Source: a virus. Taken from it: a stretch of DNA of 64,000 bases. The notes under the pieces were generated by a model. The model ran no database searches. It saw only the letters and a program-made list of their open reading frames with translations, and was not told where the DNA came from. Position 1 is the stretch's first letter; the number at the start of each line of letters is the position of its first letter. Location of the stretch: IMG/VR virus record IMGVR_UViG_3300032050_000036, positions 32,001 through 96,000 of that record; one strand, written 5' to 3'. Both the position numbers and the translations under genes were made by a program. This document shows positions 25,469-41,765 of this stretch, one piece after another.

Positions 25469-25488
25469 ATAAAAGTATTGTCATACTG

Positions 25489-25516
25489 CCACCTGAGCAT
25501 GTGGATAAAAGGCTCA
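25489..25516 (+). ncRNA. H-type pseudoknot element, copy 1
   Basis: CCAC-CTGAGCAT-GTGG-ATAAAA-GGCTCA, 20 nt after the hsp20 stop. Confidence 0.7.
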
Positions 25517-25579
25517 TTATTCATTTATAATTTGCTTTAAATTAATATACATTTTAAAAACATAAGATACTCTTATAAC

Positions 25580-26593
25580 ATGAAACTTAAAGTCTTTATT
25601 ATTTCTTTAGTGCTTTTATTAGGCACTTTTACTAATTCAGCAGCACAAGCAACAGATTTAAAAGGTGCTGGATCTACCTTCTCTGCAAACTTTATAGATA
25701 AGTGCAGAGTAATGTATGGACAACAAACAGGAAAAGTTTTAAACTATACACCAAATGGTTCTGGAGCAGGAAGAAATTTTTTTAATAATAAACTTGTAGA
25801 TTTTGCTGTATCAGATACACCATACTCAAGTCTGGATAGAAAACCTTCTGAAAACTTTGTATATGTTCCATTGGTTGCTGGTCCAGTAGCAGTTGTTTAT
25901 AATCTAAAAGACTATAGAATAACTCTCAAACTAACCAAGCAAGTAGTAGCAAAAATATTTGCTGGAGAAATTACAATGTGGAACGATCCAGAAATTCAAA
26001 AACTTAATGTTGGAAAATTACCAAAGACAAAAATAACAGTATTGTATAGAATAGATGGATCTGGCACTTCTGAAGTGTTTACATCTTACCTAAATTCAGT
26101 TGCTCCAAACATTTGGACTAAACCAGGAAACAAAACTTTCTCAACAGCATTTCCAGGTAATATAAATAATTATGTTGGAGCGTTTCAATCTGCAAGCGGA
26201 TCAACTCAGATTGCATTTTTGCAGTCTACACTTAATGGATCTATTTCATATAATGAAGTTTCTTATGCTAAAGGATTTAAGTCTGCTTCAATTGAAAATG
26301 AGGCTGGTAGATTTACTAATCCTACCCCTTCTGCAGCAGCATCATTTTTATCTAACTTTAAATTTAACCAAGATGGGTCTGCCGTATTAGATTATAAAAA
26401 TACTAATAAACTTGCATATAACATATCAACTTTTGCATATGGTGTTGCCTATACTAATAGTGGATCAAATGCTGCAACAGTTAGAGAGTTTTTGACATTT
26501 GCTATAACAAAATGTAATAAAATAGAAGGATATGCTCCAATTACTGGAAATGCCCTTAAAGTTGCAAAAGCACAAATAGCAAAGATAAAGTAG
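25580..26593 (+). CDS. pstS: Phosphate ABC transporter substrate-binding protein
   Basis: GAGST, GSGAG, DFAVSD, R.DGSGTS..FT.YL. Confidence 0.9.
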   Translation: MKLKVFIISLVLLLGTFTNSAAQATDLKGAGSTFSANFIDKCRVMYGQQTGKVLNYTPNGSGAGRNFFNNKLVDFAVSDTPYSSLDRKPSENFVYVPLVAGPVAVVYNLKDYRITLKLTKQVVAKIFAGEITMWNDPEIQKLNVGKLPKTKITVLYRIDGSGTSEVFTSYLNSVAPNIWTKPGNKTFSTAFPGNINNYVGAFQSASGSTQIAFLQSTLNGSISYNEVSYAKGFKSASIENEAGRFTNPTPSAAASFLSNFKFNQDGSAVLDYKNTNKLAYNISTFAYGVAYTNSGSNAATVREFLTFAITKCNKIEGYAPITGNALKVAKAQIAKIK

Positions 26594-26606
26594 TATAATT
26601 GTAATA

Positions 26607-26684
26607 GTCCTCCGTAGGACCTTGGGATGATTAGTTACCATCTTATTTAACCTGGCCATCGTGCCTGAATTTCCTGCGGGGGAT
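26607..26684 (+). ncRNA. Candidate rod-shaped small RNA
   Basis: TATAAT at 26594-26599; 12-bp closing stem TCCTCCGTAGGA/TCCTGCGGGGGA plus an inner stem. Confidence 0.5.
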
Positions 26685-26714
26685 TTATAATTCCCCTGTA
26701 TAATAATCTTATCT

Positions 26715-26978
26715 ATGACTGACAAAGAACTTCATAGGCAAAAACAGGCTTACAAGAAAAGACTGACAGAAATAAAACAGTCTAGCGGATGTGTAGACTG
26801 CGGAGAAACAAATCCAATTGTTTTAGATTTTGATCATCTTAAAGACAAAAAATATAATGTTTCAAGAATGATTCACGATGGATTTTCCTGGAAGGCTATC
26901 AAAAAAGAAATAGATAAGTGTGAAGTTGTTTGTGCTAATTGTCACAGGATAAGAACTCACTATAGGCTTATTAATTAA
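26715..26978 (+). CDS. HNH endonuclease
   Basis: CVDCG, LDFDH and CEVVCANCHR. Confidence 0.85.
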   Translation: MTDKELHRQKQAYKKRLTEIKQSSGCVDCGETNPIVLDFDHLKDKKYNVSRMIHDGFSWKAIKKEIDKCEVVCANCHRIRTHYRLIN

Positions 26979-26983
26979 TTATT

Positions 26984-27160
26984 TTAAGAATTTTTAATAT
27001 CTGTAATTATTGCATCTGCAAGTTCTTTACTAAAATGTACGTGCCCCGAGGCCAATTTTTCAAATGCTGGTGATAATTTTACAATAATGTTATTTTTTGT
27101 AATTTCCATTATTTGGTGTACAAGAATTTCTGCCTGTTGCTGTGATGTTAGTTCTTCCAT
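26984..27160 (-). CDS. Hypothetical protein (58 aa, leaderless, not in ORF track)
   Basis: TGATATAAT 6 nt before ATG on the minus strand; MEELTSQQQAEILVHQ. Confidence 0.55.
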   Translation of the reverse strand: MEELTSQQQAEILVHQIMEITKNNIIVKLSPAFEKLASGHVHFSKELADAIITDIKNS

Positions 27161-27197
27161 CTCTCAATTATATCATTAATATGGTATACTATTATCT

Positions 27198-28277
27198 ATG
27201 CCATATCGTATAGGTGCTAAGGGGTCATCGGGTTGCTCTGGATACCCTGCTGTAAAGGACACAGGAGAGGTTATGGGCTGCCATAAGACTCGTCGTGAGG
27301 CTGCAGCACAGATCTATGCTATAAACCGCTCTGAGGGCAATATAGGCAAGGCTATGGTCAAAGAGGGCGACATGGTAATGGCTCCACACGAAGAAGAAAT
27401 GTATGTTGGTCGTGTAGTTCATGTAATGACAGAGGGCATGCTTGGTATGCCAGGATCAGAATATTCTCTTGAGGCATCAGCAGAAGAGCCTGCTATTTTA
27501 ATTCAACTATTTGAAATGGAAGAAGGAGAATTAGAAGAAACAGAATATTTTGTTGGAGCAATGGCAAAAGATGTAATGGTTTTACCATCAATTGATTCAG
27601 GAGAAAGCATGGATAAAGCATATACAGGATGCGGATGTCCAATGTGTAAAGAATTAGATGTAACATGTGAGCAATGTCCACAATGCCAATCTGGAGAAAT
27701 GAAATCAGATTGTTGTGCTAATGTAGTTAAGCAAGCACCATGTTGGGATGGATATGTACAAAGGGGAATGAAGCCAGGAGAAAATGGTAAACCAGTTCCT
27801 AATTGTGTTCCAGCAGAAAAGGCTGATGATCTTTGGGAAGATTCTGATGATGTAGTGTATGAAACTGATTCAATGTCAAAAGCGGAAGGCTATTCTCCAC
27901 CAGCAGGTGCAAGAGCAGCAGCACGTAAAGCAATTAAATTTAAGGAACAAGGCAAGGCAAAAGGTGCGGGTACATCAGTAGGATGGACTCGTGCAGGACA
28001 GTTGGCAAGAGGAGAAACATTGTCTCTTAGCACTGTTAAAAGAATGTACTCTTATTTTTCTCGTCATGAGGTTGATAAAAAGGGGAAGGATTGGGCTAAT
28101 CAATCAAATCCGTCCAATGGGTACATAATGTGGTTGGCATGGGGTGGGGATGCTGGCTATTCTTGGTCACGTCGTATCGTGAATGCAGAAAAGGATAAGG
28201 CTTTATTTGCTGACACCTTTAACTCTATAGAAAAACAAAGCAAGAGAATTCGTGGTAGTGGTAATGGCTTCTGGTAA
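27198..28277 (+). CDS. Modular phage protein (possibly head-associated)
   Basis: Leaderless; modules MGCHKT..A.AQ, CWDGY and RAGQLARGE.LS..TVKRMYSYFSRH. Confidence 0.65.
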   Translation: MPYRIGAKGSSGCSGYPAVKDTGEVMGCHKTRREAAAQIYAINRSEGNIGKAMVKEGDMVMAPHEEEMYVGRVVHVMTEGMLGMPGSEYSLEASAEEPAILIQLFEMEEGELEETEYFVGAMAKDVMVLPSIDSGESMDKAYTGCGCPMCKELDVTCEQCPQCQSGEMKSDCCANVVKQAPCWDGYVQRGMKPGENGKPVPNCVPAEKADDLWEDSDDVVYETDSMSKAEGYSPPAGARAAARKAIKFKEQGKAKGAGTSVGWTRAGQLARGETLSLSTVKRMYSYFSRHEVDKKGKDWANQSNPSNGYIMWLAWGGDAGYSWSRRIVNAEKDKALFADTFNSIEKQSKRIRGSGNGFW

Positions 28278-28419
28278 ATCTTCTGGAAAATACAGAACAA
28301 AACATCCGTTTAACCCTATTCAAATTAAAGACGGAATGATAGTTCGTCTAAGAAAAGATGGTACCATAAAAGCCGTGCTTGGCAAGTATGGCGAATATGG
28401 CAAAAAAAATAAAAATTAA
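28264..28419 (+). CDS. Small basic protein (51 aa)
   Basis: MASGKSSGKYRTKHPFNPIQIKDG. Confidence 0.5.
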   Translation: MASGKSSGKYRTKHPFNPIQIKDGMIVRLRKDGTIKAVLGKYGEYGKKNKN

Positions 28420-28571
28420 TTATTTTGCTCTTTGTTAATTAAGTCTACTATTTCTTTTGCATATTTGTCATAATCTATTTCAATAATAAAATTTCCGTCA
28501 ATTAATTTATGAATTTTAATTTCTTTTCCTATTTCAAATAAAATATTTTTAATTTTATCTTCTATATTCAT
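28416..28571 (-). CDS. Hypothetical protein (51 aa)
   Basis: ATGA coupling with the glycosyltransferase; MNIEDKIKNILFEIG. Confidence 0.5.
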   Translation of the reverse strand: MNIEDKIKNILFEIGKEIKIHKLIDGNFIIEIDYDKYAKEIVDLINKEQNN

Positions 28572-29632
28572 AATAAGTTTTTGTTTTTTTCTAATTCCGA
28601 AAGAATTTCATCAATATGTACTGCCCCTAAGCCATACTGTTTTCTGTCTGGAATAATGTAAACATTTTCAGTTGCTACATTTTTAATTAATGAATCAAAA
28701 AACCAATAGAAGTCCCTATTCGTTGTTATCATAAATACTTTTGTATCTGGATGTGCAAATATAGCATTATAACATCCAGTGCCATCTATTGATGCTATAT
28801 GTGTTGCAGAAGAATATATATAAACCTGTTCTTCTAAAGTTAAGTCTTCATTATAGACTAATTCATAGCCCATATCAATAAAAAAGTTATCTATTTTAAT
28901 ATTATCTGAGTGTATTCTATTTTGAAAATTTTGAGTAAATGCCTCTTCACCAACACGCATAACATATTCCCAAAATCTGTCTCCCTCTTCTTTACTCATT
29001 TCATTATTTTTATATCTATAATAATTTTCTTTCCATTTTATATAAATTTGATCTGATTTTGATCTCGATATAAAAATTTTTTTATTAGGTGTTTGATTTT
29101 TATATTTTTTTAATTTATCTATGACACAATTACTGAGGTCAAACTGATGAGAAAAATCTTCATGACTAGTGTTATGAATTGGACCATTAGAAGGAACTAC
29201 ATTTCTTAAACAGGGAATGAAAAAATTATAAAGATAATATACATTTTCAAATATAATTTTTTGATCAGAAATTATAACTATTTCATCCATCGAAGGATTA
29301 TAAATATTTACTAAACTTTTAAAAAGTCCAGAAAGGTCATTCAAAAATACTTCTTTGTTAATATCATCTTCTCGTTCTACAGTAAAAATTAACTTTAAAT
29401 CTTTTATATATTTTTTTAAGAATTCATATTGTCCTAGGCACTCTTGAACTATATGAAAGTATTGCCAATTTGATAATGATATAATAAAAACATTACCATT
29501 AACAACTACTGGATCCTTTTTGGAATCATAATTTACTAAAACGTTGTTGACTTTATAAATTTTACTTTTTATACCTGGAACATCTATATATTCTATAGAA
29601 TCCCACTTAGTCTTAAAAATCTTATCAGACAT
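28568..29632 (-). CDS. Glycosyltransferase family 61 (DUF563)-like
   Basis: YFH..E, KIFISR, E.LTLEEQ.....A..I....G.G..N.IF. Confidence 0.75.
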   Translation of the reverse strand: MSDKIFKTKWDSIEYIDVPGIKSKIYKVNNVLVNYDSKKDPVVVNGNVFIISLSNWQYFHIVQECLGQYEFLKKYIKDLKLIFTVEREDDINKEVFLNDLSGLFKSLVNIYNPSMDEIVIISDQKIIFENVYYLYNFFIPCLRNVVPSNGPIHNTSHEDFSHQFDLSNCVIDKLKKYKNQTPNKKIFISRSKSDQIYIKWKENYYRYKNNEMSKEEGDRFWEYVMRVGEEAFTQNFQNRIHSDNIKIDNFFIDMGYELVYNEDLTLEEQVYIYSSATHIASIDGTGCYNAIFAHPDTKVFMITTNRDFYWFFDSLIKNVATENVYIIPDRKQYGLGAVHIDEILSELEKNKNLL

Positions 29633-29957
29633 TTTTTGTTACAACAACCTTATCATTAGGCAAACTTGGAGTTTTTACACAAACAACTGAACACTCTGTT
29701 ATAAAATTTACATCCGTTATTTCGTACGGCTCCAATATAAAAACATCGCCAGATATTAATTTTTTACCATTTAGAATCATTTCTCCAGATATTAACAAGT
29801 TTATTTCATATGCTATCTCTTGATAATGAAGGTCCCAATTTTCTCCAGCAGTATGTATTCTCCATGAAACTTCAAAATCTTTTGACTGAAAGGCAGCCTT
29901 TTCAAAATCTCCAATAAACCATCCCTTTTCAGTATTTTCAATTCTGCTAATCTTCAT
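29625..29957 (-). CDS. Cupin-fold protein (sugar isomerase/epimerase-like)
   Basis: GWFIGDF, HY....E....SG.M and VKTPS..DK. Confidence 0.7.
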   Translation of the reverse strand: MKISRIENTEKGWFIGDFEKAAFQSKDFEVSWRIHTAGENWDLHYQEIAYEINLLISGEMILNGKKLISGDVFILEPYEITDVNFITECSVVCVKTPSLPNDKVVVTKNV

Positions 29958-31054
29958 AAACCTAATTTATCCCATTCAGTCTCTTCAAATCCTTGATCAG
30001 TTATAAGGTTTATAGAAGTAGCACGATCCCTATCTGACTCTAAATGTTTATCATTAATTAAAATTCTTTCGCCACTAGTTACTCCCATCACTAACTGATC
30101 CCAGCAAAGACCTAGGTCTGTTAGTTGTTTTTCTGTTAGCATCCTTGCAGATTCTTTCCTAGCAGTCGTTAGAATTATCTTATGACCCTTAGAGTCCCAT
30201 TCATTAAACTTATCTATTACGCCTTTTAATGCTATGGCTGGTTCAAATCCGACATAACTAAATCTATGGACATGTTTAATTATTGTTCCATCTATATCAC
30301 AAAAAATAGTTTTAGGTTTTTCAGTATAGTATTCTCTTAGTTTACTGGAATATACTTCTAAATCTTGCGGGGTTCCAAGAGATATATAACCATTTCTTGG
30401 CATTTTAAAGGGAAGTATGTTAAGACCTTCTTCTATTAAATAATTATAAGTGGAGGAAATATAACATTCGCTAAATCCTTTTAGTCTATACTCTGAAATT
30501 AATTTTTTTGCTGATCTTATAAAATCAGAACCACGCCTCCAATAATGTATACCTACAAGCGCATCCTCACTTATAACCTTTTTTTCTTCAATATTTACAA
30601 TCCTGTTGTTATCTATAACTGCAAAACTATTCTTAATGTCATTAGATTTAAAAATAGCAACTGACCCATCGCAATATGCAGATCTTGATAGTTCTAAAAA
30701 TTTATCTGAATCCCACCTTAAAAGTTGATCACAGTTTGTTATTATTAATTCATCGTTGTTGTCTATATATTCTTTTGCATAAAGGGCTGCATCTGCAGCA
30801 CCATATTGATCGTTATCTAAACATATTTCTATACAATCTGGCTTTAATTTTTTTAATATAGAAGACAGCCTATTGTTATGCTCAGGGTTTTCATATTTTC
30901 TTGTAATAAATATATATTGACCCACTATATTTAAAGAATCAACGGCATGCTCAATTAAATGTTTTTTATCTACCATGATTAATGGTTTTGGTTCTTGTAC
31001 CCCTGCATTTTTGAAGCGGGAACCCAGTCCAGCCATTGGTATAACTATATTCAA
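29954..31054 (-). CDS. Sugar-nucleotidyltransferase fused to a C-terminal HAD phosphatase
   Basis: IPMAGLGSRF..PKPLI, NCDQ, LGTPQDL, then CDIDGTI, TAR and INDK. Confidence 0.85.
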   Translation of the reverse strand: MNIVIPMAGLGSRFKNAGVQEPKPLIMVDKKHLIEHAVDSLNIVGQYIFITRKYENPEHNNRLSSILKKLKPDCIEICLDNDQYGAADAALYAKEYIDNNDELIITNCDQLLRWDSDKFLELSRSAYCDGSVAIFKSNDIKNSFAVIDNNRIVNIEEKKVISEDALVGIHYWRRGSDFIRSAKKLISEYRLKGFSECYISSTYNYLIEEGLNILPFKMPRNGYISLGTPQDLEVYSSKLREYYTEKPKTIFCDIDGTIIKHVHRFSYVGFEPAIALKGVIDKFNEWDSKGHKIILTTARKESARMLTEKQLTDLGLCWDQLVMGVTSGERILINDKHLESDRDRATSINLITDQGFEETEWDKLGL

Positions 31055-31087
31055 GAAAAACTCCTTCTTCTGTTATAATTGTATCAT

Positions 31088-32167
31088 ATGAAACTTCAGT
31101 ATGGCAATCAAGATCCAGATATTTATTCTTTTGAAAGTGCTTCGCTAAAGGGCTTTCCATTATTTGAAATACCTTCAGTTCATATTAAAAATCTTAAATT
31201 CAGCAATCAACCTGAAGAAGACTATGAGTATATTTCAGGAAAGGTATTTTTAGTTCCAGCAGCAAATGATTTTTATCATGCCCTAACAGATACTATGGCC
31301 CATTATGAATCTTTAAAAACAGTTTATCCAGATTTAAAAATAATTTTTTGTTCTAATGACAATATGTACACTATAGATAGATATATTGGCATAAACAGAA
31401 AATACATGCTAGAAATTTTAAAAATTTATAATATAGAATATAAAGATATTCTTGATATAAAAAACAAAAATTATATATTTGAAGAGGTAATACATTTGCC
31501 ACATAGATCGCAATGGCACCAAGACAGGATTGTTCCTTTTGAAATACAACAAAATCTAAAAAATTTTACTCACGATGAGACTTGGTCTTATAGAAAATTT
31601 ATGATAAATTCTTTAAAACAAAAATTTTATAATCAAATAATTGATAAAGAACCTAAAAAAATATATGCATCACGTATGCCATATAAGACTAATCCTATAG
31701 ATTATTCAAAATTATCTGACGAAGATCAAAGATATTGGAATTTTAGATCACAAGAAATAAATAGACAATATAAAGATGAAGAAAAACTTATAGATTATTT
31801 TTTAAATAAAGGCTATGAAGTGTTAAATTTTGGAAACATGTCATTAATAGATCAAATAAGTGAATGCTATTATTCGACTGAACTTGCTGGAATCAATGGA
31901 TCTAATATTTTTAATTTTATATGGGCAAAGCCAGAAACAAGAACACACATTATTTATGTAACAAATGCATGGAATTATGGTTTTTGGAAATACTTTGATT
32001 ATTGCAAATTGAATTACAAGCAAATAGGATTAAAAGAAGTTCTTAAGGTTGAGTATTTAAATAGAGTTGATACTGGAAAAGCAGTCATTCATCCTCCAAT
32101 AGATTTTGATAAATTATATTTTGCAGACCATAAGGTTTTAATTGATGAACTTGAGAGCCTCCTGTAG
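31088..32167 (+). CDS. Glycosyltransferase family 61 (DUF563)-like
   Basis: FYH...D, KIYASR, MSLIDQI......GINGSN.FN..W. Confidence 0.75.
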   Translation: MKLQYGNQDPDIYSFESASLKGFPLFEIPSVHIKNLKFSNQPEEDYEYISGKVFLVPAANDFYHALTDTMAHYESLKTVYPDLKIIFCSNDNMYTIDRYIGINRKYMLEILKIYNIEYKDILDIKNKNYIFEEVIHLPHRSQWHQDRIVPFEIQQNLKNFTHDETWSYRKFMINSLKQKFYNQIIDKEPKKIYASRMPYKTNPIDYSKLSDEDQRYWNFRSQEINRQYKDEEKLIDYFLNKGYEVLNFGNMSLIDQISECYYSTELAGINGSNIFNFIWAKPETRTHIIYVTNAWNYGFWKYFDYCKLNYKQIGLKEVLKVEYLNRVDTGKAVIHPPIDFDKLYFADHKVLIDELESLL

Positions 32168-32227
32168 GATTTGAACCTACGACAATCCGCTTACAAGGCG
32201 GGTACTCTACCACTGAGTTAAGGAGGC
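32156..32227 (-). tRNA. tRNA-Thr(UGU)
   Basis: Acceptor GCCTCCT/AGGAGGC; anticodon loop CTTGTAA; T-loop GGTTCAAATCC. Confidence 0.9.
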
Positions 32228-32228
32228 G

Positions 32229-32300
32229 TAGCACTAACGGGAATCGAACCCGTCTTTCCGCCGTGAAAGGGCGATGTCCTAACCGATAGACGATAGTGCC
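32229..32300 (-). tRNA. tRNA-Glu(UUC)
   Basis: Acceptor GGCACTA/TAGTGCT; loop CTTTCAC; GGTTCGATTCC. Confidence 0.92.
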
Positions 32301-32304
32301 AATA

Positions 32305-32643
32305 TTATATTTTTAATGATCTCATATATGTCCTATGCCTATGGCAGTTAGCACATACTATTTCACATTTTGGTATTTCTTCTAACAATTGTTTCATTGT
32401 ACCATTTCTTACAATAGCATTTATGTTAGCCTTTTTAATACCACGCACATGATCGAAATCTAATTGATGTGGAGGGTATGATATTTCACATTCTAAGCAT
32501 ATTGAATTATTTAGTTTATAGTTTAAAACATATAGGTTTCTTTCATTTCTTTTATCTTTAGATCTTTTTATAGTTAAAGATTTGTTTCTTTCGTACCAGG
32601 CTTTTTTGGCAGCCTTTTGTTGTAAACTATCCTTATATGGCAT
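32305..32643 (-). CDS. HNH endonuclease within the tRNA cluster
   Basis: CLEC, LDFDH and CEIVCANCHR. Confidence 0.85.
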   Translation of the reverse strand: MPYKDSLQQKAAKKAWYERNKSLTIKRSKDKRNERNLYVLNYKLNNSICLECEISYPPHQLDFDHVRGIKKANINAIVRNGTMKQLLEEIPKCEIVCANCHRHRTYMRSLKI

Positions 32644-32658
32644 ACTTCTCCCTTCAAG

Positions 32659-32732
32659 CGATGCGTACGAGACTTGAACTCGTGACCTCCACCGTGACAG
32701 GGTGGCGTTCTAACCAACTGAACTAACGCACC
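32659..32732 (-). tRNA. tRNA-Asp(GUC)
   Basis: Acceptor GGTGCGT/ACGCATC; loop CTGTCAC. Confidence 0.92.
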
Positions 32733-32736
32733 TTCG

Positions 32737-32809
32737 CTGGTCTGGCAGGTCTCGATCCTGCGACATCTCGATTAACAGTCGAGTGTTCTACCAACTGAAC
32801 TACAGACCA
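32737..32809 (-). tRNA. tRNA-Asn(GUU)
   Basis: Acceptor TGGTCTG/CAGACCA; loop CTGTTAA; atypical T-loop ATCGAGA. Confidence 0.88.
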
Positions 32810-32824
32810 ATTATTATATTGTAG

Positions 32825-32897
32825 CACCCTCGATTGGATTCGAACCAACGACAAACGGATTAGAAGTCCGCTACTCTATCCACTGAGTTACAAGGGT
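32825..32897 (-). tRNA. tRNA-Arg(UCU)
   Basis: Acceptor ACCCTTG/CGAGGGT; loop CTTCTAA; GGTTCGAATCC. Confidence 0.92.
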
Positions 32898-32904
32898 ATA
32901 TTTG

Positions 32905-32978
32905 TAGAGCAGGTAGGACTTGAACCTACGATAGCCGAATTATGAGTTCGGGGCCTTGACCAACTTGGCTACTGCTCC
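32905..32978 (-). tRNA. tRNA-Met/Ile2(CAU)
   Basis: Acceptor GGAGCAG/CTGCTCT; loop CTCATAA; lacks the three initiator G-C pairs in the anticodon stem. Confidence 0.88.
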
Positions 32979-32990
32979 TTGAATATTTAA

Positions 32991-33417: not shown

Positions 33418-33418
33418 A

Positions 33419-33929: not shown

Positions 33930-34803
33930 TTTGCCAAAACTCCTAATAAAAATCCAACAAGGGCAGAGAGTATTCCAACGGTCCAATAATAAGTTTTTGT
34001 TAGATATCCCAAAACTATGTCTTTAACAACATCTTTTGGCACCTCTATTTGATAGCCTTCATAATCTGGATCGTCAAACTTATATGATTTCACTTATGCT
34101 CCTTCATGTGTCTATTAAGTGTATCATGGGCAAATATGCCTGAGCGCACTTCGATTTCTTTTTTACAAATATCGCATATTACAAATTTACCTGGCATATG
34201 TCCATTATATCTAAAAGTCGGTAGTTTGTAAAGTTCGGCGGAAAATAGAAGTAATAAACCTATCTATGACCTAGACGGTCAATATGGTTTAGTAACTATT
34301 CTATCCGACTATTCCAAAGAATAAGATAGCCCCTATAATAACGATAGCAGACAATAAAATCTTAATTTTTGTTTCTTTAGGCCATTCTTCTGTATTCATT
34401 CCCATGGTTTCTCCTATCCAGCATGCATCCAAGTAAAATGTTTTTTACATACATCTATGACAATACCAGTATCTTTTTCTGGCTGAGTAAACTCTGCTTT
34501 ATTGTTGCAATAAAAACATTTCATCTATTTATTATAACATATTGGACAATTTAATATATTGGGAGTTCCTGATGTTGCGTAAAATGTTACGCCACAATTA
34601 TGGCAGAGAACCTTAATCTTTAATTTATTCATCATACTCTCCCAACTCTTTTAATATTTGTTCTGCCAAATCTTTGGCGATCTTGTCTTTATGTTTGCCC
34701 TTTATGTAGTCATAAATAATATCAGAAATAATATCAACCTTAGATTCTTTAGATAACATGGTTTCTCCATTATACGGGTATTTTGCGAGGGTATAATGAG
34801 GCC

Positions 34804-35121
34804 ATGGACCCTACTATCCTATATATAGTATATCACCAAGGATATAATGCCATTAAGGTGGGTATAGGGGATATTGCTGGTAAAAGGTTTAAAGCCCATA
34901 GGACCAAAGGGTGGGAACTGGTTTGTTATTGGTATTTTCAAAATAGGCGGGATGCAAAAAGAGTCGAATCTATAGTACTACAAACCCTAAGAGAGAGATA
35001 TGGACATTATCTGGATAAGGGGGATATGCCATATGGGGGATATACGGAGACATTTAATGCCAAGAAAATAACCAAGAGAAGGTTAATTGGTTTGGTCAAT
35101 AGGGCTATAAGGGGATCTTGA
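34804..35121 (+). CDS. GIY-YIG/T5orf172-like nuclease domain protein
   Basis: LYIV...IKVGI...RF..H...GW...E.......GYTETF. Confidence 0.65.
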   Translation: MDPTILYIVYHQGYNAIKVGIGDIAGKRFKAHRTKGWELVCYWYFQNRRDAKRVESIVLQTLRERYGHYLDKGDMPYGGYTETFNAKKITKRRLIGLVNRAIRGS

Positions 35122-35269
35122 TATCCCCGCTTTTTTATACCCTATTATCCCCAAGATCTCATTACAGAAATTAATACAAGAAGATAGGCCACCCATCCTG
35201 TGATAAATCCGTATATGAATATTGCTGGTTTGCTAATTAAAAGTTTCTTCATTTAACCATTATACATGG

Positions 35270-36090
35270 AAGTTATCCACAGGTTTATCCACAGAAATAT
35301 CTTACTGATTATATTATTGGATAGGGTTAAAGTGGAGTAAAGTGGAGGATAGTGGAGCATGGAGCGCTTTTTAAGGCGGGGATCGTAATGTCAAACCATA
35401 AACCCTATATCCCAAACCATATATCCTTCAAACCCTTATACCATATATGCCCCATATCTGTCAAACCATGTATAAAAGGTTTGGCATTATACATTCAAAA
35501 CCATGGTTTGTCAAGTATCTTCGTAAAGGAATTTGAATGAAAAATTGCCAAAAGTCTGGGAAAATTCTGATAATTTCGTAATATGTTTTATTATGCCAAA
35601 AAATGTTTTAAAACCAGGAAATATGGTTTGTTATTGGTTATTAGGGGGATTGGAGTTGGTATCTTTTTCTATACCGTCCTTAAGAACGGGCGGTACAAAA
35701 GAAAAGTAATTAGACAAACCAATCTTATGGGTAATAGAAACAAATGTATTCCAAACCTGGTCTTGTCCTTTATTGTATGCTACTGGATCTGATTTTCTAA
35801 GGTTTGAAAAGTGTCTTGGACTCATATATTAATTGTAACACTCTTTATACCGCCCAAACTTTCAGCGATTTTTTGGACGGCGTTCGTAATGTCTTTTTAT
35901 CCTGTGTTTTGCGCTGGGCGCCCCAAATTTGGCGGGGGATAAAAAGATACCGTAATACTACCTATATAAGTATACATAGATACAATGGTTTGACAAACAA
36001 AATATATTATGCTACATGGTTTGGGAAAAATATGGTTTGATCGTAATCTGGGAAAAATGGTTTGGTATCGTAATGGTTTGTTAACAAAGA
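35270..36090. other. Non-coding repeat-rich region, candidate replication origin
   Basis: No credible ORF; DnaA boxes; many CAAACC/GGTTTG and TCGTAA repeats. Confidence 0.5.
35273..35293 (+). promoter_or_regulatory. Tandem DnaA boxes
   Basis: TTATCCACA at 35273-35281 and 35285-35293. Confidence 0.65.
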
Positions 36091-36119
36091 AAAATGCACC
36101 GACCCGTTTTCAGGGCTTT

Positions 36120-36395
36120 TTACGAATTGTCAAATCCTAAAAGCAATTCATCAAGACTAGAGTATCCTGTATCTTTGACACCAAGTGACTCTAAAAATAA
36201 GTCCCATGTTTCATTTACATATCGTGTAGCCATTTCAGAAGCAGGAATAATTTCTTGTGAAATAGAAAACGCTAATGGCAAACCAATGTCGTTGTATTCG
36301 ATAAAATCTTCAAACTCAGACTCACCTTTATAATTTAACCACAAGTCTGCCAAAATATTACATCTGCTAGAAAAGTCTGTATTGGTGTTGCTCAT
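36120..36395 (-). CDS. Acidic hypothetical early protein
   Basis: GAGGAG RBS; FIEYNDIGLPLA. Confidence 0.7.
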   Translation of the reverse strand: MSNTNTDFSSRCNILADLWLNYKGESEFEDFIEYNDIGLPLAFSISQEIIPASEMATRYVNETWDLFLESLGVKDTGYSSLDELLLGFDNS

Positions 36396-36579
36396 TGTAT
36401 TTCTCCTCTTTGTGGTATTGTGCGCTTTCTGCGATAGTGATAAGTCTGTTGTAGGAAACTGTTGGTGCGATTACTGCTAAATACTCGCCTACCTGCTCAA
36501 TGTCAAGGCGAAGGTCAGATACGATAGCGGAAATACGCATGGCAACTTTCTCCTCGTCAGTTAGTCTGTGTTTTCTCAT
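36367..36579 (-). CDS. Hypothetical early protein
   Basis: AAGGAG RBS; MRKHRLTDEEKVA. Confidence 0.7.
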   Translation of the reverse strand: MRKHRLTDEEKVAMRISAIVSDLRLDIEQVGEYLAVIAPTVSYNRLITIAESAQYHKEEKYNEQHQYRLF

Positions 36580-36677
36580 AGTTCTCCTTATAGTCATTGT
36601 ATCAAATAAGATGTGGGGGCGCAAGTAGAAGAAAGGTGCTACCTACGCCCCCTTATTACGGAGGGGACCCAACCCTC

Positions 36678-37034
36678 CTAGGATGTGACCGTCGTCACAA
36701 GACTGTGATAGTTAATAAAATCTTGTATAGTATGTATACCAGTGTCATCAGTTACAGTCTTATTAATTAAATCAATTAGCACGGGATGGTCCATGAATCC
36801 CAGGTCGTTAGGATTGCAGGCATAAATTCCATACCCCGTCTCGTCCATAATATTATCCTTGATTAGATAACTAACAGCCATACGTACATAGTATGACTCA
36901 TCACCTAGGCGTGGTGCTGCATGCTGCAGGGCTGCTGCCAGGTCTGTATACATAGAGTATTCACCCCAATGGCTGTATAAGGCCACTGCCTGGTCTTCTG
37001 ACTGCTTAAAAACGAATGTACAACGTGCTCCCAT
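36678..37034 (-). CDS. Conserved phage early protein
   Basis: GAAAGGA RBS; MGAR...LYSHWG motif. Confidence 0.75.
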   Translation of the reverse strand: MGARCTFVFKQSEDQAVALYSHWGEYSMYTDLAAALQHAAPRLGDESYYVRMAVSYLIKDNIMDETGYGIYACNPNDLGFMDHPVLIDLINKTVTDDTGIHTIQDFINYHSLVTTVTS

Positions 37035-37233
37035 GGTGGGTCCTTTCGATAGTTGGGTTTTCTTCTAGTGTATCAAATTTTAGGTCTAATGTCAATTGCT
37101 CGTACATCATGCCTCCTCAAAAGCAACTACAGATAGATCTGAAAGTACTTCGCTCCAGATCTCTCCCTCTCCAGCCTCTGATTCAACCACAAATTTCATA
37201 TAGGTCCCAGAAGGCTCGTGTATTACTTCAATA

Positions 37234-37530
37234 TTATACTGTGGCATTGTCTTCCCTTTCTGCTATAGCAAATGATAATTGATAAGTTAATTGATAAACT
37301 GCAGCAAGAGCGTCACATTGTCCCTCCCAGTACTTACGTTCCATAGATTCTAAAGCGTCGCTATAGTCATTGGCTTCCTCTATACGCTGCGCTTCTTCTA
37401 GTTCTAGTTGAGCCTCATACATCCAGTTCTTCATCTCACCATGAATGATATCCAAGGCTGAAATATTTTCATCTACCATATGCTGCAGGTGCTCATCTAG
37501 ATTGTAATCTGGATTAAAGTTTGTTTGCAT
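37234..37530 (-). CDS. Hypothetical early protein
   Basis: GGAG RBS; MERKYWEGQCDAL. Confidence 0.65.
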   Translation of the reverse strand: MQTNFNPDYNLDEHLQHMVDENISALDIIHGEMKNWMYEAQLELEEAQRIEEANDYSDALESMERKYWEGQCDALAAVYQLTYQLSFAIAEREDNATV

Positions 37531-37720
37531 GCTCTTCTCCAATCTGTATAAAATGGCGGGTAGCAATAGCCTGCCCACCCAACCAGTTAAATTCAAAATC
37601 TAACTCTAGGAACTCTTTAGAATTCATATCTAAATCTTCCATTTGTTTTTCTATCTCTTCTTTGTCTTGCTCAATAGAAATGAGATGTGCTTTCATGTAT
37701 TCAATTAGGTAATTAGACAT
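37514..37720 (-). CDS. Hypothetical early protein
   Basis: Coupled acidic helical ORF. Confidence 0.65.
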   Translation of the reverse strand: MSNYLIEYMKAHLISIEQDKEEIEKQMEDLDMNSKEFLELDFEFNWLGGQAIATRHFIQIGEEHANKL

Positions 37721-38453
37721 CGACTTGGTCCATTCTATAGTTGGGTATATATTCCTCAGTTAAGTATACTTTATGGATGTCGCAATCTGCAACTGCTTCT
37801 AAGTCTGCCTCGCCTAGATAGTGACAAGAATCACAGATTTCTCCACAATCGTTATCACAGTATTCTAATGTATTAATTTCATCACAATCTCTACATTTGT
37901 TTTCATAGTTAGAATCTTGAATGATAACTCCAGCAAGATATTCTGTCTCACCACCCCAACCTGTTTCTTCCTCATAAGACAAGGTAATGTTTAGGTTTGG
38001 ATAATCAAAAGATAGTCTTTGTATAGCAGGATGTGGCGGAGACCAAGCGGTATTAAACTTATACTGTAAAGAGGTTTCGTCTTCTTCGTATAACTCAGTC
38101 TCAGGATAATCTTCTCCGTCACGAACTGATACATCCCACTTAGTTCCCCACTCACGAACATTAAAGTCATACCAGCATTTACCCTTAAACTGTAATTGCT
38201 CTGCCATGGGCAGGGTATGGTCAGGTTGCTTCATATAATCTTCATCACTAATACCTGCTTGTATATGATTATAGATATTATGGAAAGCAAATATAGGGTT
38301 AGAGTATGAAGTCTCAGTTAACTCCATTTGTCTTGTTTCCATATTAAACTGGTCATGCATTTTAGTAAATGGTTGGTTAAGTTGTGCCTTAACCTTAGCA
38401 ATGTCTTGTTCATTGCCTTCGATAGTTAGATAGTTGTAACACCAATTTGGCAT
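37713..38453 (-). CDS. DUF1281/YubB ferredoxin-like domain protein
   Basis: MPNWC.N, WYD....WGTKW, F.TAWSPP motifs. Confidence 0.8.
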   Translation of the reverse strand: MPNWCYNYLTIEGNEQDIAKVKAQLNQPFTKMHDQFNMETRQMELTETSYSNPIFAFHNIYNHIQAGISDEDYMKQPDHTLPMAEQLQFKGKCWYDFNVREWGTKWDVSVRDGEDYPETELYEEDETSLQYKFNTAWSPPHPAIQRLSFDYPNLNITLSYEEETGWGGETEYLAGVIIQDSNYENKCRDCDEINTLEYCDNDCGEICDSCHYLGEADLEAVADCDIHKVYLTEEYIPNYRMDQVDV

Positions 38454-38507
38454 TATGGGTCCTTTCTGTGGGTTCTTGTATTATTCTAGCAAATTAGGTA
38501 GGGTATG

Positions 38508-38669
38508 TCAAACACGTCCCTCTGCCAATAGTCCTAGTAAGAAGTCCTCTAGATCTCTAAGTACTGATACATCTTCCTCTGCAAACTTAGTATCCTTAAT
38601 ATGGTGATGGATAGAATAATTTAATATCATAGCCATATTTTCTACCTGCTCTGTTGTATATCCTAGCAT
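38508..38669 (-). CDS. Hypothetical protein (53 aa)
   Basis: TAATG coupling; MLGYTTEQV...GLLAEGRV. Confidence 0.55.
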   Translation of the reverse strand: MLGYTTEQVENMAMILNYSIHHHIKDTKFAEEDVSVLRDLEDFLLGLLAEGRV

Positions 38670-38899
38670 TATGCATTCTCCTTTTCCATAAGAATATTAT
38701 AGGCGGCAAGGCTGGTTATGTCAATATTTATTTCTCTACCAGGGTATTTATTAATTAGGAAATTAACTGCATCTCCTGCTGATTTAAAGTCACTATAGTT
38801 TTCTGAATATCCATATCCTTGTATAGTTATTTCCCAGCAATCAATCCCACCAGGTGAGACAGAGTATTCCATTTCATATATTTGTGCATTTAGGGTCAT
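38669..38899 (-). CDS. Hypothetical early protein
   Basis: Leaderless after TGATATGAT. Confidence 0.65.
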   Translation of the reverse strand: MTLNAQIYEMEYSVSPGGIDCWEITIQGYGYSENYSDFKSAGDAVNFLINKYPGREINIDITSLAAYNILMEKENA

Positions 38900-39043
38900 G
38901 GTTTAATCATATCAAAATCTAGGGGAAAAATCAAGTTCTACGTAATAAAAAAAATTCATGACATTTTTAGTCGGTTACGTAATAAAAGTTTTTGATGATA
39001 TTTTTAGTCGGCCACTTTTTTGATCTTTTGTCAAATAAAAAAT

Positions 39044-39071
39044 TGAGCAGTTTATACTCATGCTCAGGAGT
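39044..39071 (-). ncRNA. H-type pseudoknot element, copy 2
   Basis: ACTC-CTGAGCAT-GAGT-ATAAA-CTGCTCA followed by a U-tract. Confidence 0.75.
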
Positions 39072-39080
39072 TGAATTAGA

Positions 39081-40088
39081 TTAAACTAATTCTAAAGTGT
39101 TGCGAACAACATTTAGCAAACGATTTTTTTCTGCTGTGATAGCAGGGTCAAAACCACTTGAACCCATTAGGATTGATTCAGTAAGACCACGCTTACCACC
39201 ACGATACCAATCGATTCTTTCTGTGAGTGCGTTCCAAGCACCCCAAGCAGTATTGGCAATCATGCCATTGAATTCGCCTGTGTAAATATCATTGATTAAA
39301 TCAACTTTATTTGTCCACTTAGAAAGTGCGCCTTTCTTAGTTTCATCAGGCTTAGGATACGCAGCCAAAACAATATCATTGAATTGTTGCGCTGTGATTT
39401 CTTTTTCAATCATGAGTTGCGCCATGATAGAAAATTCGTCCATGTAAGCATTAGCAACAGCAAGAGCCTCACGAGCCTGTTGAACTTTACCCTCAGCAGA
39501 TTGTGTGTGACGAATCTTGAATGATTGCTTTACGCCATTGTTTTTCTTAGTGCGACCAAGAGCAACAGCGAGAGTGTTAGCGCATACAACACGAACAGGT
39601 GTCACGCTTGCTTGAATAGCAACAGAACCATCGTGTGATGTATTAACAAGAAGATAAGTCTTAACCTTATCCGCTACACCATTAGGGTCAAGAACAGTCT
39701 CACGCTCAAGAGCAAGAGAACCGAAAACAACACGACCACTACGCAATGAGCCAGCAGTCTCCCAACGACCTCCGCCATCAAGAATTGCATCACCAAAAGT
39801 GAATAGTTCTTCATTTTGTAGTGGGACATAGCGTTCACCAACAACGCCTAAGACATCAACTTGATTTGCGGTGAATGGATTATCACGCACAACATATTGA
39901 TAAGATTTATCAGATGTAAGAGTAGATGGGATTTCTACATCTTCAAGACGAACATTCCAACCATCAAGGTTAGCGAGTTCCAACATTTTTTCAGTAGTGA
40001 CTTCCTCCTGAAAAACAGTTCCTAAACCATGCCAAGCAGGTTCACGGAATGAAGCGAAAGAATTAGCAGATTCTAATTCATGAGCCAT
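39081..40088 (-). CDS. DUF932 family phage/plasmid protein
   Basis: MAHE...PAWHGLG, Y.P.QN, ETAGSL..G, SHDGS and RVVCANTL. Confidence 0.88.
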   Translation of the reverse strand: MAHELESANSFASFREPAWHGLGTVFQEEVTTEKMLELANLDGWNVRLEDVEIPSTLTSDKSYQYVVRDNPFTANQVDVLGVVGERYVPLQNEELFTFGDAILDGGGRWETAGSLRSGRVVFGSLALERETVLDPNGVADKVKTYLLVNTSHDGSVAIQASVTPVRVVCANTLAVALGRTKKNNGVKQSFKIRHTQSAEGKVQQAREALAVANAYMDEFSIMAQLMIEKEITAQQFNDIVLAAYPKPDETKKGALSKWTNKVDLINDIYTGEFNGMIANTAWGAWNALTERIDWYRGGKRGLTESILMGSSGFDPAITAEKNRLLNVVRNTLELV

Positions 40089-40231
40089 ATTTATTTCCTT
40101 TCTATTTTTAGTTATTCTTATCTTAGCACAACGGGCTGACAAAAGCAAATCCTGGAATTTGGGCGTTTTGATCGTAACTACGTAAAACGGACATTTTAGG
40201 ACAAAACGGGCCGACCACTTTTTTGAGGAAG

Positions 40232-40261
40232 TGAGCAGTTTACGTGGACGTGCTCAGGTCC
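40232..40261 (-). ncRNA. H-type pseudoknot element, copy 3
   Basis: GGAC-CTGAGCAC-GTCC-ACGTAAA-CTGCTCA. Confidence 0.75.
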
Positions 40262-40341
40262 CTCACGGTCTCTTTGAAAGAAAGGATGAAAGAAGAGATC
40301 CGTGCACATTGCGTGGCCTTTCATGAACCACGCAAATTTAT

Positions 40342-40752
40342 TTAGATGTCGATGTTGTCGACGCTTGCAGAAACATGTGTTACATGATTCATATCATATG
40401 TGATTGCTTCAAAATCAATATCATTAATTATTGATTCTGCGTCTTCACCTGCAGGAACTTCAATTGTTAAATAGTAAGTTACGGTAACCTCTGCTTCAAC
40501 TTCCTTGGTAAGTTCGAATGCACCAATCTCAGAAAGTTCAACAGCCTGCTCTTCAGTGATGTTGCCATTCTCTAGATTCTCCATGGTCCATTCATGTAGA
40601 CCAGTTGACATTGCATTTAGTGCAGCAGCAGTGCTAAAGTCACGCTGTACAACACGAGCATGAGACTCTTCTACAGTCTTTACTCGCTCCTCTAGTTGCT
40701 TGATTGTATTACGAAGATATTCCTCCGTAGCATTAATTACATTAGTTTCCAT
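40342..40752 (-). CDS. Hypothetical early protein
   Basis: GAAAGGA RBS; acidic. Confidence 0.7.
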   Translation of the reverse strand: METNVINATEEYLRNTIKQLEERVKTVEESHARVVQRDFSTAAALNAMSTGLHEWTMENLENGNITEEQAVELSEIGAFELTKEVEAEVTVTYYLTIEVPAGEDAESIINDIDFEAITYDMNHVTHVSASVDNIDI

Positions 40753-41014
40753 CTGTGATATCCTTTCCTAGACTATCAAATTCGTTTATTTCATTAATCA
40801 TAGCATCCATTTCACTTTCTGTCAATAAAACATTAGTGACCAATGTTGCTGTAAGAGATGAGAGTAGCGCAGAATATTTAAATAACATCTGTGCGAAATC
40901 ATTATCTGACATTTCATTTCTTGCGTGTAGTAGTTGTGAAGCAATAGCCATTGACATATCGTCATGGACTGCGTCTTTAGTTGCTTCTTGTATTGCTATA
41001 GCGGTTGCTATCAT
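40742..41014 (-). CDS. Hypothetical early protein
   Basis: AGAAAGGA RBS; own promoter. Confidence 0.7.
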   Translation of the reverse strand: MIATAIAIQEATKDAVHDDMSMAIASQLLHARNEMSDNDFAQMLFKYSALLSSLTATLVTNVLLTESEMDAMINEINEFDSLGKDITDGN

Positions 41015-41040
41015 CTTAGTTTCCTTTCTTTCTAATACTA

Positions 41041-41070
41041 AGTTTAGCATTGGGTTCTGACATTTGTCAA
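41041..41070 (-). promoter_or_regulatory. Promoter with TGTCAG box
   Basis: TTGACA-18 nt-TAAACT, with TGTCAG 10 nt upstream of the -10. Confidence 0.75.
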
Positions 41071-41080
41071 GTTGGAGGTG

Positions 41081-41107
41081 GGGCAGTTTTACATCATACC
41101 CAGGATG
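41081..41107 (-). ncRNA. H-type pseudoknot element, copy 4
   Basis: CATC-CTGGGTAT-GATG-TAAAA-CTGCCC; compensatory change in stem 2. Confidence 0.75.
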
Positions 41108-41233
41108 ATCCCTCTAGGAATACCCGCAAGGACTTTCGTCACTTCATTTGTTAGCGGGGCTTATCAAGAGAGAAACCTGTTGTGGCGGGGGTAATTACGA
41201 TTACACACCCGAAACCCGCCACAATTATTTAGA

Positions 41234-41656
41234 TTACAAGTATCTTGCGATAGCGTTGTAAGTAGAAGTAGAAACTACTTCCTCATCTGTCATCTTGAGA
41301 ATACGAATTGCGTTCTCAATTTCATCTTTTTGCTCACGATACTGCCACTCATGAATAGACACATAGTCTTTCTTGGGTTCATCAGGTAGCGTGATAGTTC
41401 CAGCAGGTAGAGAGAAAGATACTTGGATTTCGTTATTGTATCTCTTATGAGCAGATAAGTCCTCTGCCTTAGCAATTTTATCAAGTGCTAATTTAGCGAC
41501 TTCCTTGTTCCAAGCCTTTACTGCCTTGTCGTGCTTTGCTTCGTTCGCCTCTTGTGAAGCGAAGTCTTTATTTAGTTTATCAAGTGCGCTTTCTAGTGCC
41601 TTGATAACCTTAGTTGTAGCGATTTTTACATTTATCGCTTTGCCATTTCTAGCCAT
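41234..41656 (-). CDS. Conserved actinophage early protein
   Basis: AGAAAGGA RBS; AINVK..T.KVIKALE...AIRILKM.DEE.V. Confidence 0.75.
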   Translation of the reverse strand: MARNGKAINVKIATTKVIKALESALDKLNKDFASQEANEAKHDKAVKAWNKEVAKLALDKIAKAEDLSAHKRYNNEIQVSFSLPAGTITLPDEPKKDYVSIHEWQYREQKDEIENAIRILKMTDEEVVSTSTYNAIARYL

Positions 41657-41719
41657 TTATTTATCCTTTCTTAGTGGGTTGTTATTTATAGTCTAGCATT
41701 TTTACTGCTAGAAATCAAG

Positions 41720-41749
41720 TGAGCAGTTTTAGTAGCCATGCTCAGGGCT
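41720..41749 (-). ncRNA. H-type pseudoknot element, copy 5
   Basis: AGCC-CTGAGCAT-GGCT-ACTAAAA-CTGCTCA. Confidence 0.75.
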
Positions 41750-41765
41750 TTTCCTGTATTAGGAA

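Follow-up and report, generated by a model that had tools for sequence, protein, structure and literature searches.

A covarying RNA pseudoknot of about 28 nucleotides at gene boundaries in phages of many bacterial phyla

We analyzed a 64,000-nucleotide stretch of phage DNA (hereafter, the window), which comprises bases 32001-96000 of the complete 113,498-bp phage record IMGVR_UViG_3300032050_000036 (IMG/VR), a genome with direct terminal repeats. The window carries five copies of a small H-type RNA pseudoknot that recurs, with covariation in both of its stems, at gene boundaries in other, unrelated phages numbering in the hundreds. With a confidence that falls a little short of even, we read this knot from comparative sequence evidence as a mechanical barrier that stands clear of ribosomes and would end and protect phage messages. 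We weigh this reading below against a resemblance to viral exoribonuclease-resistant RNAs (xrRNAs) and against roles in RNA processing, ligand binding, and recoding.

Five pseudoknots in one phage genome

Each copy reads, 5' to 3', as a four-nucleotide strand ending in C, a CUGRGYAY octamer, a G followed by the complement of the first three bases, a linker of 6 to 8 nt ending in AAAC (AAAAG in copy 1), and UGCYC (AGGCUCA in copy 1). The two four-nucleotide strands form stem 1 (S1), and the octamer pairs with the 3' strand to form stem 2 (S2). The motif has the loop CUGAGCA and the tail AAACUGCUC.

25489-25516, plus strand: pseudoknot copy 1; S1 CCAC/GUGG, loop CUGAGCAU, linker AUAAAAG, S2 UGAGC/GCUCA (AGGCUCA variant); E = 1.2e-9
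39071-39044, minus strand: pseudoknot copy 2; S1 ACUC/GAGU, S2 UGAGCA/UGCUCA; E = 3e-13
40261-40232, minus strand: pseudoknot copy 3; S1 GGAC/GUCC, loop CUGAGCAC, longer linker ACGUAAAC, S2 UGAGCA/UGCUCA; E = 6.6e-9
41107-41081, minus strand: pseudoknot copy 4; S1 CAUC/GAUG, loop CUGGGUAU, S2 GGGUA/UGCCC; E = 9.5e-9
41749-41720, minus strand: pseudoknot copy 5; S1 AGCC/GGCU, linker ACUAAAAC, S2 UGAGCA/UGCUCA; E = 4.8e-12

A first-pass annotation, made by reading this DNA alone, had named these five sites. All are present at the positions that it gave, except that it had placed the start of copy 4 one base off, and S1 is, as it had said, a different perfect 4-bp helix in every copy. In the consensus that it proposed, the terminal CUGCYC fails for copy 1, where the 3' strand is AGGCUCA and S2 is the 5-bp helix UGAGC/GCUCA; this variant is also found in a Clostridia prophage. 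Copy 4 departs from the S2 consensus at two pairs, A-U becoming G-C and C-G becoming U-G. A strict pattern search gave four matches in the window and none in 100 shuffles. Furthermore, a covariance model trained on other phages and run over the whole 113,498-bp genome returned exactly these five sites (E = 3e-13 to 1e-8). Since that model finds nothing else below E = 0.25, the value of its next-best match, the list of five copies is correct and complete, and chance is excluded.

Covariation of both stems in related phages

The proposal of an H-type pseudoknot with covariation in both stems had been drawn from the five copies, and it is borne out far more strongly by over 150 examples in other phages. 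When viral contigs were scanned with a pattern that did not require S1 pairing, at least 120 loci were recovered, with 140 instances among the matches listed. Among these listed matches, S1 was fully paired in 112 of 139 instances and paired at three of four positions in 21 more, with at least 36 distinct S1 sequences; when the 5' strand was shifted by four bases as a control, full pairing fell to 6 of 139. A second search required S1 and a few fixed bases while leaving four central S2 positions free. S2 was paired at all four free positions in 157 of the 159 matches, and reversed-sequence controls produced 3 matches. Seven compensated S2 variants were recovered: AAGC/GCUU six times, and GGAC/GUCC, AGAC/GUCU, GAAC/GUUC, AAAU/AUUU, GAGU/ACUC, and the GGGU/GCCC of the window once each.

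In an alignment of 135 sequences, 97.5% of pseudoknot cells were paired. The covariation score was 0.475 versus 0.124, a level reached by none of 500 shuffles, and slid registers all collapsed. The same pattern holds at a single site: downstream of the DUF932 gene in 13 related phages, the 5' strand of S1 is ACUC, AAUC, AUUC, AGUC, or CAUC, and its partner strand always matches. A generic structure descriptor free of sequence constraint returned mostly AT-rich chance matches, among which the sequence-conserved copies stood out.

The element is 27 to 30 nt long. S1 is a 4-bp helix, NNNC/GN'N'N', with a C-G closing pair invariant in 135 of 135 sequences. Loop 1 (L1) is a single invariant C, S2 is the 5- to 6-bp helix (U)GAGCA/UGCUC(A), and the junction is one base. 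The linker (L3) is A-rich and ends in AAAC, its AAA being invariant and the following C at least 90% conserved. Single-helix energies were only about -2 to -5 kcal/mol in the four copies evaluated, and S1 and S2 can coexist only as a pseudoknot, in which the L1 C would cross the deep groove of S2 and the AAAC-ended linker the minor groove of S1. Because G-U pairing is confined to the sense strand and the 5' gene lies on the same strand in 93% of instances, the structure forms in RNA. A protein site at the DNA level is ruled out by the sense-only G-U pairs and by the strand bias relative to genes.

A hairpin ends 0 to 6 nt 5' of S1 in about 39% of the family and in four of the five window copies. 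No additional structure was seen in the 30 nt 3' of the knot, where the mean minimum free energy was -2.1 compared with -2.3 for shuffled upstream segments, the only shuffle run. On one 70-kb phage contig (L062, positions 7396-7580, plus strand), three knots lie within 185 nt with GC-rich hairpins between them, the third with a broken S1. S2 also resembles the D-stem of tRNA (GCUC/GAGC), probably by coincidence.

Placement at gene boundaries

The window copies had been described as lying on the coding strand, about 10 to 130 nt past a stop codon. The distances from stop to S1 are 20, 9, 80, 126, and 16 nt for copies 1 to 5, on the coding strand every time. The accompanying phrase "placed 3' of genes" is true but incomplete, as the family as a whole is a boundary element that often stands directly 5' of tRNA genes or Shine-Dalgarno sequences. 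Stop-to-S1 distances bottom out sharply at 5 nt (a value seen 15 times, with 6 nt seen 11 times and shorter distances almost never) and peak at 5 to 9 nt, and distances from the knot to the next start codon have a floor at about 15 nt and a peak at 15 to 40 nt. These lower limits would correspond to how far a terminating ribosome reaches downstream and an initiating one upstream, so that the knot could stay folded while both neighboring genes are translated.

Downstream of the knot, 12 same-strand tRNA genes begin 3 to 13 nt from its 3' end, and no tRNA gene was found ending within 90 nt on its 5' side. An open reading frame (ORF) was missing within 200 nt downstream in 31 instances and missing upstream in 9. 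In the first 8 nt past S2 (+1 to +8), G is strongly depleted and U enriched. A T-rich tail (at least five T in seven positions, from 1 to 3 nt past S2) follows 38 of 159 knots (24%), a fourfold excess over the roughly 10 (about 6%) expected.

The genes on either side fall into about 70 unrelated clusters per side. At the DUF932 and hsp20 sites, the knot accompanies the upstream gene and the downstream gene changes; the knot follows hsp20 at 14 other phage loci, with at least six different downstream genes. Convergent gene contexts outnumber divergent ones (18 versus 8), which leans toward a 3' role, although the ORFs involved are short and possibly spurious. In long intergenic gaps the knot is close to the stop in 14 cases and close to the start in 9, a split that is not decisive between a 3' and a 5' role.

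We also considered whether the element is a recoding signal that makes ribosomes read through the stop codon of the upstream gene or shift frame there. The 5- to 9-nt spacer is the spacing of frameshift and read-through pseudoknots, and coremin, a viral knot discussed below, is reported to promote -1 frameshifting in vitro. However, spacer phase is mixed (31, 22, and 10 instances for the three classes), and UGA or UAA occurs inside the motif in two of three frames. Many copies lie 20 to 130 nt past the stop, and no conserved extended ORF was found. We regard recoding as highly improbable and rejected it on spacer phase and in-frame stops.

Several hsp20-linked knots (L015, L021, L022, L028, L031, L070, L085, and L098) are followed by a conserved AU-rich stretch and AATTTAAGGAG, and one hsp20-linked locus carries exactly TTAACTTTA, the enhancer sequence of T7 gene 10. 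In this group the start codon lies at a fixed 18 to 23 nt past the knot. It is possible that the knot and a strong ribosome-binding site move together as a cassette.

Distribution among phages and bacteria

In Staphylococcus aureus phietaviruses (phiETA, 80, B236, and about 80 more), the knot separates the gene for the minor head protein from that for the GP20 scaffold, and Lactobacillus phage AQ113 has it in the same slot. In phiETA (L250, positions 1497-1530) and about 80 related records, the loop CUUAGCAU pairs with UGCUU to give a 4-bp S2 plus a U-U mismatch, followed by U5; three GenBank records annotate the S. aureus knot site as a predicted promoter. Lentibacter phage ICBM1 carries a knot after its ribonucleotide reductase gene, and others occur in Mycobacterium phage Labelle, Synechococcus cyanophage S-RIM4, and Vibrio phage D456. 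A 5,035-nt Microviridae genome has one flanked by the VP5 gene and by a small ORF, after which comes the capsid gene. The motif-bearing phages span at least six phyla.

In a scan of bacterial genomes, 96 of 121 pattern matches showed no S1 pairing and are chance matches, so that only 25 are real and raw counts are unusable. The 25 S1-paired matches come mostly from metagenome bins and probable prophages, and their sources include Clostridia, Saccharibacteria, Adlerbacteria, Pseudomonadales, Coxiellaceae, Anaerolineae, and Atribacterota, among others.

Microviruses are not known to encode RNA-processing proteins. Since the knot occurs in a microvirus as well as in phages of many phyla, it probably needs no dedicated phage protein and works alone or with host factors. 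A fold of 28 nt that is near invariant in phages of Firmicutes, Actinobacteria, cyanobacteria, Proteobacteria, and candidate-phyla-radiation bacteria and in a microvirus must make contact with some feature of RNA metabolism that all bacteria share.

A candidate barrier at the ends of messages

The features that flank the five window copies are as follows.

25049-25468, plus strand: HSP20 gene (PF00011, E = 1.5e-20), with copy 1 20 nt past its stop
25474-25487, plus strand: accessory hairpin P0 of copy 1, AGUAU/AUACU, ending 1 nt 5' of S1
39033-39042, minus strand (read 39042-39033): U-rich run UUUUUUAUUU, directly 3' of copy 2
39073-39092, minus strand: accessory hairpin P0 of copy 2, GAAUUAG/CUAAUUC, -6.4 kcal/mol, ending 1 nt 5' of S1
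39081-40148, minus strand: DUF932 gene (PF06067, E = 5.6e-46), with copy 2 9 nt past its stop
40342-40752, minus strand: ORF, 5' neighbor of copy 3, 80 nt from stop to S1
41041-41070, minus strand: sigma-70-like promoter (TTGACA, 18 nt, TAAACT, with TG), directly 3' of copy 4
41108-41133, minus strand: imperfect hairpin P0 of copy 4, -9.8 kcal/mol, touching S1 and kept in relative L079
41234-41656, minus strand: ORF, 5' neighbor of copy 4, 126 nt from stop to S1
41690-41718, minus strand: promoter-like sequence (TTGATT, 17 nt, TAGACT, with TG), directly 3' of copy 5
41751-41765, minus strand: accessory hairpin P0 of copy 5, UUCCU/AGGAA, ending 1 nt 5' of S1
41766-42023, minus strand: ORF, 5' neighbor of copy 5, 16 nt from stop to S1

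Copies 2 to 5 lie within a run of small minus-strand genes that have strong sigma-70-like promoters, and no canonical terminator was found on the gene strand of this early region (38-42 kb). On its 3' side, copy 2 has the U-tract followed by a -35-like TTGACA. The order of knot and then promoter seen at copy 5 is kept in L037, L041, and L079. U-richness past S2 is most pronounced at copy 2 and moderate at copies 1 and 5. The stop codon of the DUF932 gene sits in the loop of the copy-2 P0 hairpin, and the copy-5 P0 hairpin covaries across relatives L013, L026, L099, L041, and L079. An ORF of 42 codons through copy 3 (40196-40324, minus strand) is almost certainly noncoding, because linker length varies among orthologous copies.

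We propose that the knot is a portable gene-boundary module, folded while both neighboring genes are translated, and that each window copy would set the 3' end of the message upstream of it and shield that end. If a U-tract comes next (copy 2 and, more weakly, copies 1 and 5), S2 might serve as the closing helix of a signal resembling an intrinsic terminator. At other sites, 3'-to-5' exonucleases would be halted at the knot, whether they enter after read-through or after a cut farther downstream, and where a tRNA begins 3 to 13 nt downstream, RNase P would give the upstream message a 3' end just beyond the knot. From the fold, its conservation, its placement, and its distribution we infer that the knot blocks nucleases, that it can terminate transcription, and which RNA it protects. 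A 3'-end role is favored because the window copies stand in terminator positions (after a stop, with three just before the next promoter), because the knot keeps to its upstream gene where it follows DUF932 or hsp20, and because RNase P cleavage at an adjacent tRNA would produce an end just past the knot. The suggestion in the first-pass annotation of an exonuclease block or a noncanonical terminator is compatible with these context statistics.

The likeness to established 3'-end signals goes some way. Like intrinsic terminators and the RNase III sites of T7, the knot lies past stops and before the next promoter or ribosome-binding site, and a quarter of knots are U-tailed. Unlike an intrinsic terminator, it is a pseudoknot and not a GC-rich hairpin, and most knots lack a U-tract, many being followed by a cotranscribed tRNA or gene.

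Several observations weigh against a barrier at message ends. Copies 3 and 4 are not U-rich past S2 and have no U-tract. A few family members (L109 and L191) are followed by a canonical terminator, beside which a further 3' structure would be redundant. Both in the hsp20 group and in the GP20 slot of Firmicutes phages, the knot stands a fixed 18 to 23 nt 5' of the start codon, which suits a 5'-leader role equally well. The nearest characterized relative, coremin, blocks a 5'-to-3' enzyme and not a 3'-to-5' one. Moreover, a plain hairpin would suffice as a 3' block, and the extreme sequence conservation of S2 and the linker is not accounted for by this reading. It is because of the 18- to 23-nt start spacing, the position before scaffold and capsid genes, and the coremin precedent, all three of which suit protection of the downstream RNA just as well, that our confidence in this reading stays just below the halfway mark.

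If the knot does block nucleases or end transcripts, it would explain how compact phage genomes without canonical terminators achieve varied message lifetimes, and the xrRNA strategy of eukaryotic viruses would gain a link to the viruses of bacteria. The knot would also offer a very small, portable stabilizer or insulator for synthetic operons.

Relation to known RNAs

That the motif belongs to no named family, as first supposed, holds for Rfam at the window copies. An Rfam covariance-model search of the window returned only six tRNAs at the gathering score, and at E values up to 10 it gave only weak chance matches, none coinciding with the motif; the preQ1-I, pistol, twister, and hammerhead models matched at neither level. 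Nor did we find it described in the literature, whether we looked for its sequence, for xrRNAs of phages, or for terminators built on a pseudoknot. It may be among the more than 10,000 phage RNA candidates that an existing catalogue lists without names (PMC10690425).

As judged by alignment, the motif is related to the 5' half of GP20-b (RF03003). The AQ113 copy aligns end to end with that model at 26.2 bits, below the gathering score of 36.2, with helix 1 of the model corresponding to S2 and its unpaired 5' tail to S1. The window copies gave no GP20-b match even at E values up to 10, in 4-kb and 101-nt stretches. Ten GP20-b matches from Clostridia genomes (L251-L260) share a layout of a hairpin plus UAAAAC or UUAAAC. 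Nine are above the family cut-off, and in the tenth, L258 (35.2 bits versus 36.2), the loop CUGAACAC is paired to UGUUUA, which places it in the class seen in the window. In one Clostridia prophage locus, a copy-1-type knot followed by U6 takes the place of the canonical hairpin terminator present in its sister loci. GP20-b differs from the general family in having a second hairpin and an A-rich tail and in lying always 5' of a GP20 gene; in a Pfam scan, none of the genes downstream of copies 1, 2, and 5 was GP20. Through this relationship, the uncharacterized GP20-b motif gains a structural reading, since an H-type pseudoknot can be drawn for it as well.

Plant viruses and other RNA viruses carry the coremin motif, which stalls both Xrn1 and scanning ribosomes (PMC10520033). 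In its Watson-Crick type (xrRNA_C or xrRNA_WCC), a pseudoknot with a one-base L1 and an S2 of GAG/CUC was demonstrated by compensatory mutagenesis (Dilweg et al., PMC10321173), and the UUAAA linker is predicted to lie in the S1 minor groove (PMC10321173). By layout and sequence pattern, this type is the nearest characterized architecture to that of the phage knot. Both have a 4-bp S1 closed by C-G, a one-base L1, GAG/CUC in S2, a UUAAA-type linker, and an intergenic or 3' untranslated location, and some phage instances share GACGUUAAACU with coremin. The 4-bp first hairpin (hp1) with C-G closure and the GUUAAAC-type spacer by which coremin is recognized are both found in the phage family. The two nevertheless differ in their loops, which are YGAD/YGNNAD in coremin (PMC10520033) and the octamer CUGAGCAY, with U at its second base, in the phage knot. 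They differ too in S2, which has 3 bp in coremin and 5 to 6 bp in the phage knot, where there is also one extra junction base. Coremin needs a second hairpin (hp2) right after the spacer for Xrn1 resistance, whereas the phage family lacks one and has instead an upstream hairpin in part of its members. The hosts of coremin are eukaryotic; those of the phages are bacteria, which lack Xrn1.

This architecture raises the possibility that the knot is a phage counterpart of viral xrRNAs, blocking 5'-to-3' attack, so that what it protects is the downstream gene or tRNA rather than the message upstream. In Firmicutes, Actinobacteria, cyanobacteria, and Rhodobacterales the attack would come from RNase J, and elsewhere from RNase E scanning in its 5'-end-dependent mode. 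Beyond the match to Watson-Crick coremin, some GP20-b members have coremin-like hexaloops (CGGGAA and CGCAAA) and UUAAACUAU spacers that fit the coremin consensus, and flaviviral xrRNAs halt the bacterial enzyme RNase J1 (PMC5760640). The positions directly 5' of tRNAs, 5' of scaffold and major capsid genes in Staphylococcus and Lactobacillus phages and the microvirus, and at a constant distance from the downstream start in the hsp20 group point the same way. Against this, three window copies are followed by promoters, so that downstream transcripts mostly start past the knot. The hp2 that coremin requires has no counterpart in the sequence 3' of the phage knot, which shows no more structure than shuffles, and the phage loop lies outside the YGAD/YGNNAD consensus. 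The motif is also present in a Vibrio phage, the host of which is not known to have RNase J. Resemblance to coremin alone is no proof of nuclease resistance: in the coremin study, ordinary frameshifting pseudoknots did not stall Xrn1 (PMC10321173). We consider downstream protection of this kind rather doubtful.

A broader proposal joins the two directions, and we hold it as possible, if on balance unlikely. On the analogy with coremin, the phage knot may be its relative or convergent twin in phages of many phyla: a protein-independent knot of about 28 nt that stops processive RNA-degrading enzymes, and perhaps RNA polymerase where a U-tract follows, and so divides polycistronic messages into units with separate lifetimes. 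Were this true, the bacterial world would have its first natural xrRNA-like element, and the knot might also be the first intrinsic terminator of a pseudoknot type.

Small ribozymes of phages occur in multiple copies, in intergenic positions, and beside tRNAs, and the distribution of the knot resembles theirs. It might accordingly be a processing signal that cuts polycistronic transcripts at gene boundaries, either as a tiny self-cleaving ribozyme or as the target of a universal endonuclease, for instance RNase P. Across phyla, hardly any variation is seen in the bases of the loop, junction, and linker, which is more typical of catalytic or specifically recognized RNAs than of roadblocks, and the occurrence in a microvirus fits a process independent of phage proteins. 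However, no Rfam ribozyme model matches even at E = 10, and 27 to 30 nt is below the size of any known self-cleaving class. There is no conserved unpaired candidate cleavage site outside the helices, and the 3' flank has no CCA-like consensus. Processing of this sort seems to us unlikely.

The first-pass annotation had also offered a protein- or ligand-binding aptamer. As an H-type knot of about 30 nt with an A-rich 3' tail, the element does recall the preQ1-I riboswitch (RF00522), and the related GP20-b is treated as cis-regulatory by Rfam and by Fremin et al. A regulatory aptamer would recognize either a small molecule or a protein, of host or phage origin, and control translation or termination of its neighbor. 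Yet the neighbors themselves are unrelated, belonging to some 70 clusters per side, and tRNA genes are among those downstream. Unlike preQ1-I, the knot matches no preQ1-I model, has no link to queuosine genes, and does not sequester the Shine-Dalgarno sequence, which is never part of the fold. With L1 and the junction at one base each there is no evident pocket, and we found no conserved alternative conformer. The ligand-binding version of this idea is thus unsupported, and a regulatory aptamer in general strikes us as a distinctly poor prospect, slightly more so than a processing signal.

The -1 frameshifting knots of luteoviruses such as beet western yellows virus (BWYV) are about 28 nt long, with a short C-containing L1, one extruded junction base, and an A-rich loop across the S1 minor groove, all of which the phage knot shares. 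It differs from the BWYV type in having no slippery heptamer or overlapping frame, in sitting past stops, and in its longer S2.

Other features of the window

A near-identity search found no known phage closely similar to this region. The six tRNAs found by Rfam form a cluster at 32155-32978 on the minus strand (Met, Arg, Asn, Asp, Glu, and Thr), and none has a pseudoknot on its 5' side, unlike in many relatives. Proteins encoded at 19633-20997 and 29954-31054, neighbors of the tRNA cluster, match PHROG 3980, with HAD-hydrolase and polynucleotide-kinase-like parts, which hints at an RNA repair module.

On the plus strand at 25049-26593, hsp20 is followed by a gene for a PstS-like periplasmic phosphate-binding protein. 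Together, hsp20 and PstS-like genes are auxiliary genes typical of aquatic phages, and many of the related contigs come from what we presume, by their IMG numbers only, to be freshwater samples.

A repeated sequence composed of an A-tract, GTGGYCGRC, and AAAATRTC lies 3' of copies 2 and 3 (39000-39025 and 40190-40225, minus strand) and also at 38970-38985. At the corresponding place, relatives carry AAAAATTTTC and TGTGA-N6-TCACA. This repeat looks like a shared regulatory or promoter-upstream element of early genes.

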